DNA of 64,000 bases from Candidatus Xenobium occultum (GCA_002423485.1 DIWH01000066.1:70193-134192), one strand, 5' to 3'; shown: positions 8,440-9,634, counted from the stretch's first letter. Made by a program: numbers and translations. The notes: generated by a model not told the origin, from the sequence alone.

Positions 8440-9366
8440 GTGAACAGCATTTCCGGAGTCCGTCTCTTCACCGATGCGGCGGCGCCACGCCCGGCAACGC
8501 CCCGTCCTGCGGCTTCCGAACCCCAGCCATCCCCTCCCCGGGCCGGCGACGACGTCCTCTTCAGCCCTCCGGCCGCTCAGCCGCCCCAAGAGGCCCCGTC
8601 CGGCGCGCCTGCTTCCTCGACTCCGCAACCTCCTCCCGCCGCCGCCTCCTCCACGCCCGGCGAGGTCGAGGGGTTTCTGCTGGCCGAGGTGGCTGCCGCC
8701 CCGGTTCCCGGCTTCTCGGCAGCCTCCCGGACCGGCGCCGTGCCGGCCGACCTGCCCGCCGACGCTGACAGCCATCAGGTCGGCGAGTGGTGTGGCGAGG
8801 TGGCCCGCGCGGCCCTTTCAGTCCCCGAGCGCACCTCCCGGATCACACCGGTCCTCTCCAAGGCCGTGGCCAAGGCCCAGAGCCCTTCGCCCGCCTGGGT
8901 CAAGGCGAATCCCCAGCAGGTGGAGCGTTACGTTCAGGAGACCCTCGAGCACGCCGACGCCATGCATCGGGTCGGCCTCCTGCGGGGCCAGGACTGGAGT
9001 CAGCACGACCTGGAAGGCGCCACCAGCAAGTTCCATCCGGAGATCGCGCAGTTCCTGGCCCTCCCCGGGCGTAACGAGGCGGTGGAGTGGGCCATCGCTC
9101 GCCATAACGCGGCCGACCACCACGCCGTCTGGGCCGATCCCGCTTCGGGCGTGGAGGACCTTGCCGAGAGCGCCTCGGACATCGTCAACGCCTGGCGGAT
9201 GAACCGCCGGGTCTACGACAAGCCGTCCTGGAGCTGGGAGCGCATCACCCGCTTCATCGAGGTCAGCTTCCAGAACAACGATCTCAGCGCCAATCAGCGC
9301 GATGCCCTGCTGGCCGCGATTCCCCATCAGATGGAGGAGGAGAGCCGTCATGGGCTCCCCACCTGA
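8440..9366 (+). CDS. Hypothetical protein with Pro/Ala-rich disordered N-terminus (~130 aa) and a ~180-aa C-terminal domain of unknown function
   Basis: GTG start preceded by a strong SD (tcAAGGAGGgcctggttGTG). It is divergent from the ATLF-like gene. Its stop overlaps the start of the next small gene (ATG...TGA). Confidence 0.5.
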   Translation: MNSISGVRLFTDAAAPRPATPRPAASEPQPSPPRAGDDVLFSPPAAQPPQEAPSGAPASSTPQPPPAAASSTPGEVEGFLLAEVAAAPVPGFSAASRTGAVPADLPADADSHQVGEWCGEVARAALSVPERTSRITPVLSKAVAKAQSPSPAWVKANPQQVERYVQETLEHADAMHRVGLLRGQDWSQHDLEGATSKFHPEIAQFLALPGRNEAVEWAIARHNAADHHAVWADPASGVEDLAESASDIVNAWRMNRRVYDKPSWSWERITRFIEVSFQNNDLSANQRDALLAAIPHQMEEESRHGLPT

Positions 9367-9634
9367 GGCCGGGCCCCTTCCAGACCACTTCCGCACGGGC
9401 GACCCGGTCGAGTTCCATCGGGACTGGGATCCCGGCTTTGCGCCGGATGACCCCTTCTACAAGGCTCCCGTCCCGGCAGGTTCACGCGGCGAGGTCCTGG
9501 AGGTGGGGCCGGACTACGTGCGGGTCCGGATGCAGGACGTTCAACGCTGGGCGACGCCCCTGATCGTCTGGGCGGAAGGCCGCTTCCCCGACCGGATACC
9601 CGGCGGGCTCTCCTGTCTGCGCAAGCTCAACTGA
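9350..9634 (+). CDS. Small hypothetical protein (94 aa), translationally coupled to the preceding gene
   Basis: ATG at 9350 lies inside the stop region of the upstream ORF. Sequence MGSPPEAGPLPDHFRTGDPVEFHRDWDPGF...VRVRMQDVQRWATPLIVWAEG. No recognisable motif. Confidence 0.45.
   Translation: MGSPPEAGPLPDHFRTGDPVEFHRDWDPGFAPDDPFYKAPVPAGSRGEVLEVGPDYVRVRMQDVQRWATPLIVWAEGRFPDRIPGGLSCLRKLN

Follow-up and report, generated by a model that had tools for sequence, protein, structure and literature searches.

In a 64,000-nucleotide stretch of DNA from Candidatus Xenobium occultum (GCA_002423485.1 DIWH01000066.1:70193-134192, referred to here as the window), two genes of unknown function, which we call A and B, lie at positions 8440 to 9634 of the plus strand. 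We found that A and B are real open reading frames (ORFs) that form a genuine, strictly paired and translationally coupled two-gene module, and that this module is self-contained and independent of the neighboring metalloprotease-like gene, M. Profile comparisons and a structure model support the C-terminal domain of A as a very divergent, HD-GYP-type metal-dependent phosphodiesterase of the HD superfamily, an offshoot rather than a canonical member; an SH3/KOW-like beta-barrel is supported for B. We give about even odds to a reading in which A acts as a phosphodiesterase effector that is exported from the cell and is held in check by B, its cognate inhibitor or immunity protein.

Gene A (8440 to 9366, plus strand) encodes 308 amino acids (aa) from a GTG start codon and is delimited by its ORF, Shine-Dalgarno (SD) sequence, homologues, structure model and selection profile. 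The SD sequence, AGGAGG at 8426 to 8431, is located 8 nt ahead of the GTG, and related genes use GTG, TTG or CTG at the same position. Gene B (9350 to 9634, plus strand) encodes 94 aa from an ATG. Its SD sequence, GGAGGAGGAGAG at 9333 to 9344, falls within the coding end of A, and its ATG sits 14 nt upstream of the A stop codon (TGA, 9364 to 9366), so that the two ORFs share 17 nt and the coupling junction spans 9333 to 9366 on the plus strand. A longer reading of B (110 aa, from 9302) and the in-frame starts upstream of 9350 are not conserved. In a window of ∼68% GC, both genes have a coding-type GC content at third codon positions (0.83 for A and 0.82 for B). The initial annotation had described an ORF pair of unknown function with a perfect SD sequence and a GTG start, and its coordinates are borne out. 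The translational coupling that it proposed also stands, but the stop of A does not overlap the start codon of B as it had stated. The same 17-nt overlap is seen in the closer relatives (L001, L005, L006, L007 and L009), and the remaining, more distant loci have gaps of ∼6 to 30 nt instead.

A word-index search returned 40 homologues of A, and the same search combined with a profile returned 29 of B, none of which carries a name or a Pfam domain. A B homologue directly follows A in all 16 distinct loci. The source genomes include UBP9_UBA1432, a “Ca. Eremiobacteraeota” metagenome-assembled genome (MAG), goat-rumen and RUG MAGs, a groundwater “Armatimonadetes” MAG and MAGs labelled Burkholderiales. 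UBP9 is a basal anaerobic class of Ca. Eremiobacterota (PMC6664022) and has also been named Xenobia (PMC9758169). The A-B pair occurs almost only in one uncultured bacterial class. Because the loci that carry it span GC contents from 33% to 70%, the pair is old within this lineage. It is also rare: a scan of JGI metagenomes added three loci, and neither a plasmid collection (searched by tblastn) nor a scan of viral contigs contained relatives of the pair.

Both proteins are under purifying selection. Against four related genomes, the ratio of nonsynonymous to synonymous substitution rates (dN/dS) was 0.05 to 0.14 for the C-terminal domain of A and 0.13 to 0.22 for B, compared with 0.04 to 0.10 for FtsE and 0.05 to 0.08 for PotA. 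The first 100 codons of A gave 0.38 to 0.61. Among close relatives, the pair is single copy and syntenic, and the C-terminal domain of A is 90 to 98% identical, the variable part of the protein being its N terminus.

This division of A is mirrored in an AlphaFold2 model built with a 28-sequence alignment. Residues 1 to 93 form disordered segments in which the predicted local distance difference test score (pLDDT) is below 50, and from residue 101 the chain is all-alpha, with 10-residue block means of at least 93 and a mean of 89 for the last eight residues. From pLDDT, alignment, dN/dS and composition, the N-terminal intrinsically disordered region covers approximately residues 1 to 100 (8440 to 8739, plus strand) and is Pro/Ala/Ser-rich and fast evolving. 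The disorder predicted in the initial annotation is therefore upheld, at ∼100 rather than 130 aa, since pLDDT values below 50 end at residue 93. The N termini of A are Ser/Ile/Pro-rich and poor in acidic residues (one at most in the first 25). Of 28 sequences, 27 have Pro or an aliphatic residue at position 3-4, and the N termini share a conserved tip (M-x-I-S/Q-x-x-G) and an invariant Asp37. The leader resembles type III-type secretion signals, a resemblance that is not specific, and no other protein in the window or in all loci was found to share it. An FlgM-like N terminus was considered and not adopted; there was no Pfam FlgM match.

The C-terminal domain of A (approximately residues 101 to 308; 8740 to 9363, plus strand) was initially held to have no recognizable motif. 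It contains the set ETxxH, HD, K, HN, HH and D..A..R.Y, and the HD-GYP-like assignment of this putative metal-dependent phosphodiesterase supersedes the earlier view. In the wider family, H171, H189, D190, K197, H222, H227, H228, D247, R257 and Y259 are invariant and E243, A251 and R253 nearly so; E167-T168 is invariant in the core family only. The all-alpha fold is that expected of an HD domain, and the metal-ligand motif (H...HD...H...HH...D with ExxxH) is present, with the middle His in a different position. When the wide-family profile was compared with PDB sequences, the best match was PmGH (4mcw, a “metal dependent phosphohydrolase”; E = 0.014), in an alignment that places HD on HD, K on GK, HHxxW on HHERW and SASDivnAlrxxRvYk on SISDVFDALTSDRPYK. 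In addition, an hhalign comparison with four aligned HD-GYP domains of solved structure gave 80% probability (E = 1.4e-5) over the half of the domain containing HH...D..A..R.Y. A profile of full-length A had a single match among PDB sequences, of low complexity and spurious. A HEPN (Rx4-6H) reading of RHNAADH was rejected, as the Arg is not conserved.

Compared with the HD-GYP phosphodiesterases PmGH (4mcw), PA4781 (4r8z), V-cGAP3 (5z7c), Bd1817 (3tm8) and DvhD (9rbz), A keeps the order of residues, namely, ExxxH, HD, (G)K, HH followed by W, and D..[DN]A...R.Y[KR]. Unlike these enzymes, A lacks the GYP motif (HHExxDGxGYP) and has HHAVWADP instead, or in the family HHxxWxNP or HHxxWxDP; its spacing is more compact, with the third His five residues before HH (HNxxxHH) and not in a separate helix; it has only a disordered N terminus in place of a sensor domain; and a small SH3-like protein invariably accompanies it. 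It also goes undetected by curated HD family models. Against the Pfam HD and HD_5 models, A had no match at E ≤ 1, and 13 family members had none at E ≤ 5; a Foldseek search of the A model against PDB yielded nothing below E = 0.9. Scans of A and B against Pfam, NCBIfam, PADLOC and PHROGs returned nothing meaningful.

B, the obligate partner of the A domain, is predicted to be a small beta-barrel of the SH3/KOW/Tudor-like kind, with a conserved loop, WDPgfAxDDPFY. It had been described as an acidic and aromatic protein, and it is indeed mildly acidic (pI 5.2), with 10 aromatic residues among its 94. No Pfam domain was detected in B, including a DNA-binding antitoxin fold of the helix-turn-helix (HTH), ribbon-helix-helix (RHH) or AbrB kind. 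Comparison of the B profile with PDB sequences gave a weak match to hydrazine synthase that we judged spurious. Three B sequences (P0051, P0055 and the L010 copy) have an N-terminal hydrophobic signal or anchor segment. They constitute a subclade of 138-aa proteins (at 6614 to 7030 in L010) in which this segment is conserved and which most B proteins do not resemble in this respect; an extracytoplasmic or membrane location of B is therefore implied in that lineage.

To find distant relatives of the A domain, a domain profile was searched exhaustively with HMMER against 1.84 billion cluster representatives. The family is very rare, with 29 proteins (clusters) at E ≤ 1e-3, and these members place the domain behind several types of N-terminal region. 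P0080 (1,004 aa; contig labelled Polyangia) contains RHS repeats (RHS_repeat, E = 3e-28), and its A-like domain is located at the extreme C terminus, preceded by the RHS core motif and a hydrophobic stretch rich in Gly and Ala. Sec-type signal peptides begin P0079, P0083 and P0089, and two Gly-rich N-terminal transmembrane (TM) helices begin P0084 to P0086, P0090 and P0091. P0088 is encoded between genes for TPR class II-type chaperones, adjoining FHIPEP (SctV-type) and YscD-FHA genes, i.e., in a type III secretion system (T3SS) cluster. P0074 is a long form of 766 aa with an unrelated coiled-coil N-terminal region of 560 aa and an A-type domain (E = 1.5e-43). The presence of one C-terminal domain on RHS, signal-peptide, TM-pair and coiled-coil long-form architectures is a pattern used to recognize polymorphic toxins, and it supports the view that the wider family is predominantly found in exported architectures.

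The small gene downstream also changes with the subfamily, as polymorphic toxin systems would have it: B follows A at the 16 core loci, and at L019 an 87-aa B homologue (E = 3e-32) lies 14 nt downstream of P0074. As the B homologue is kept behind the unrelated N terminus of P0074, B tracks the catalytic domain and not the N terminus. Behind P0079 and P0080, the place of B is taken by proteins of 144 and 148 aa that are homologous to each other (28% identity, E = 1e-14) and unrelated to B. The partner therefore follows the catalytic domain, and different subfamilies have different partners, which is the organization of an effector or toxin with cognate immunity. This second small-partner family is encoded at 7152 to 7586 in L017 and 2352 to 2798 in L018 and has no Pfam match. 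At L019, the B homologue is followed by an SLT lytic transglycosylase gene; the long-form A relative, the B homologue and SLT make up one tight same-strand array (171 to 3854) on a contig of 35% GC, and the disordered N terminus of the SLT protein contains GDSVEIS, reminiscent of the D-S-V motif in the N termini of A.

In the mechanism that we favor, A would exit the cytoplasm or enter other cells via its disordered N-terminal region and, once delivered, would hydrolyze a phosphodiester substrate. Candidate substrates are a cyclic dinucleotide, another nucleotide signal or an envelope phosphodiester. B, made 1:1 by virtue of the overlapping ORFs, would bind the catalytic domain of A in the producer cell and keep A inactive, and its invariant acidic DDPFY loop could plausibly insert into the metal site of A, as an inhibitor or immunity protein. 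A fuller version, which we put forward tentatively and with less confidence than the effector-inhibitor reading as such, is that A and its distant relatives may be undescribed, HD-GYP-derived exported phosphodiesterase effectors mounted on RHS, Sec, TM-anchored and T3SS-linked carriers, the UBP9/Xenobia leader using an unrecognized export route. The family would be neutralized by subfamily-specific small immunity proteins, here a new SH3-like barrel with a DDPFY plug loop, and would target a nucleotide second messenger or an envelope phosphodiester in neighboring cells. Our literature search found nothing directly relevant on HD-type polymorphic toxins or on secretion or flagella in Xenobia, and no paper on an HD-GYP-type domain as RHS cargo.

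Several observations weigh against an exported effector. A has no signal peptide and no recognized trafficking domain in Pfam or NCBIfam, including RHS, LXG, PAAR and filamentous-haemagglutinin domains. No secretion-system genes are present in the window or at the core-family loci, and the T3SS linkage seen with P0088 was not reproduced at a second locus (that of the related P0095), so the T3SS context rests on one locus. Most B proteins lack a signal peptide and a few have one, which no simple localization model fits. The enzymatic assignment itself depends on three independent comparisons, each of them marginal alone, and the middle His of HD-GYP domains is not aligned, H222 adjoining HH (HNxxxHH) instead. 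Related strains do not show the C-terminal polymorphism that characterizes polymorphic toxins. A C-terminal domain as constrained as FtsE or PotA next to a variable N terminus is the reverse of a classical polymorphic toxin, and this arrangement in one syntenic copy is as compatible with a stable cellular enzyme as it is with a conserved effector.

The module thus shares only some features with known delivery systems. As in polymorphic and RHS toxins, the A domain family is found at the extreme C terminus of long exported proteins (one of them with RHS repeats), with a small gene directly after it whose family changes with the toxin subfamily, and A and B are translationally coupled. Unlike in those systems, A has no recognized delivery domain, its C terminus is conserved and its N terminus variable, and the locus is single copy with no arrays of orphan immunity genes. 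Type III effectors and their chaperones offer a second comparison: a small, mildly acidic partner gene adjoins A, one distant A homologue is encoded in a T3SS cluster, and A has a disordered, Ser-rich N terminus with an aliphatic residue at position 3-4 and few acidic residues, signal rules that are not specific. However, B is an SH3-like barrel and not a CesT-type alpha/beta chaperone, its presence goes with that of the catalytic domain rather than of the N terminus, and neither the window nor the loci showed any T3SS genes.

The main rival explanation, which we consider somewhat unlikely, is that nothing is exported and that A is a cytosolic cyclic-dinucleotide phosphodiesterase (acting, e.g., on cyclic di-GMP [c-di-GMP]) with a disordered regulatory tail and with B as its SH3-like regulatory or adaptor subunit. 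The HD-GYP relatives are, by the names of the matches, c-di-GMP or cyclic GMP-AMP phosphodiesterases, and a TPR-GGDEF cyclase of 889 aa is encoded at 25282 to 27951 on the plus strand of the window, so the organism probably makes c-di-GMP. The missing signal peptide and trafficking domain, the housekeeping genes on either side of A-B, and a single syntenic copy held in close relatives under selection as strong as that on FtsE or PotA would also be expected of such an enzyme. It accounts poorly, however, for a family that is extremely rare and patchy, whose distant members are RHS C-terminal cargo, Sec exported, TM anchored or encoded in a T3SS cluster, and some of whose B partners carry signal or anchor segments. 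Furthermore, A has neither the folded sensor domain nor the GYP motif that are usual in HD-GYP enzymes. The exported members likewise argue against an intracellular module of the toxin-antitoxin kind with the toxin gene first, in which A would be a growth-arresting phosphohydrolase and B a labile protein antitoxin, neither of them exported; we regard this explanation as distinctly improbable. Like a type II toxin-antitoxin system, A-B is a tight operon of two small overlapping genes that strictly co-occur in neighborhoods that vary across lineages, and B is small and mildly acidic. Unlike in such systems, the toxin gene would come first, no DNA-binding domain was detected in the SH3-like B, neither protein matches a toxin or antitoxin family in PADLOC or Pfam, and the 100-aa disordered N terminus of A, with its conserved tip, has no counterpart and no role. 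The pair is also vertically stable and single copy in close relatives.

The initial annotation had a different proposal, in which A and B are the partner, chaperone or immunity of gene M (7084 to 8238, minus strand), described as ATLF-like. M is indeed transcribed divergently from A across a 201-nt spacer (8239 to 8439), and it adjoins A-B in the four closest genomes, where it is 91 to 97% identical. We tested co-occurrence by running A, B and M as tblastn queries against every retrieved locus. Of the 12 loci in which the upstream side could be seen, 4 contain M, namely, the window and its three closest relatives (L005/L008, L006 and L023); the other eight carry the pair without it. In L007, A is 85% identical and the order FtsX-FtsE, A-B, potCBDA is kept, with no trace of M in the 585 nt between FtsE and A. 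The A-B module is thus stable, and M beside it is an indel. Moreover, the A-proximal promoter block is kept where M is missing, and the tandem motif of the spacer is not conserved. The claim of identity fared no better, as M had no ATLF match in Pfam (its only match was a subthreshold one to Peptidase_Mx, E = 3e-4) and no relative among PDB sequences. With B beside A in every distinct locus and M in a third of those that could be assessed, the result is the one that had been named in advance as speaking against a tie among the three genes, and we hold a functional link to M to be very improbable. The toxin/immunity-like logic that came with the proposal survives as the best reading of A-B itself.

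Within the spacer, the 90 nt that adjoin A (8350 to 8439, plus strand) are kept in all four close relatives, including L005, L006 and L007, the last of which lacks M. The conserved elements are, in order, CCGGAGATTGCCGTGATGTAACATCCCGA ... TGTTC ... GCGGGCAGG ... TATACT ... AAGGAGGG, and the block can also be described as GATTGCCGTGATGTAACATCCCGA ... GCGGGCAGG ... TATACT. The A-B operon probably has its promoter and 5′ leader here. A scan of the upstream region for sigma-70 consensus sites (including a −35 match) and terminators found none, Rfam contained no RNA family matching the block, and alifold gave no covariation support for a structure in it. The M-proximal half of the spacer contains three tandem 16-nt units starting with CCCCGARGAG (8265 to 8312, no strand assigned; units at 8265, 8281 and 8297). 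This motif occurs 5 times in the window against 1.8 expected. Repeated motifs had thus been correctly noted in the shared intergenic region, but a relative with a 91%-identical A has a single copy and a 72% relative has none; the units are a local, nonconserved tandem duplication and probably not a functional operator.

The neighborhood of A-B differs in more distant lineages. Upstream of A, there is a threonine synthase gene in L001 and L009, a DNA methylase gene in L015, and a divergent pair of coiled-coil Zn-ribbon protein genes in L004/L011 and L014, with other neighbors elsewhere. The Zn-ribbon proteins are paralogues of ∼400 aa encoded at 3343 to 5802 in L004 and 1590 to 4039 in L014, both rumen-type lineages, with identities of 38% and 66% between orthologues at the two loci. 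A DNA N6/N4 methylase gene is found near A-B in L004 as well as L015. M itself has an HExxH motif (LVHEVGHAVD) and a Gly-zipper-like hydrophobic C terminus and is polymorphic for presence or absence.

The other genes of the window are housekeeping genes: two CtpB-like peptidases, an M23 peptidase, FtsEX, potABCD, a beta-CASP RNase, MetH, a helicase, the TPR-GGDEF protein, glycogen phosphorylase and a bacterial alpha-2-macroglobulin. The two CtpB-like S41 peptidases (PDZ and Peptidase_S41 domains) are arranged in tandem at 856 to 3906 on the minus strand, upstream of the M23-FtsX-FtsE cluster. The alpha-2-macroglobulin (2,020 aa; 55663 to 61725, plus strand) has Big_5 domains, and another alpha-2-macroglobulin gene lies 5 kb from A-B in L001 (12059 to 12939). 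Long ORFs with no Pfam match at E ≤ 1e-4 are located at 30446 to 32023, 36961 to 38367, 42389 to 44200 and 62010 to 63272 on the minus strand and at 35867 to 37177 on the plus strand; some of these may be antisense artifacts of high GC.

The components of the module are of known kinds (the HD superfamily, SH3-like barrels and the operon logic of an enzyme and its inhibitor), and Pfam, NCBIfam, PADLOC and PHROGs have no family that includes either protein. Separating the pair from its metalloprotease-like neighbor removes a false functional lead. Even on a conservative view, A and B represent an unannotated, GYP-less branch of the HD-GYP domains with an obligate SH3-like subunit, one that Pfam and NCBIfam models have missed. 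If the effector-inhibitor reading is true, a signaling-type HD-GYP catalytic core would have been turned into an effector domain that can be delivered and that has dedicated inhibitors, adding a new class of enzymatic activity and a new immunity fold to the systems of interbacterial conflict. It would also give the first functional handle on a conserved, lineage-specific gene pair of the uncultured anaerobic UBP9/Xenobia bacteria sampled from rumen, digester and groundwater.

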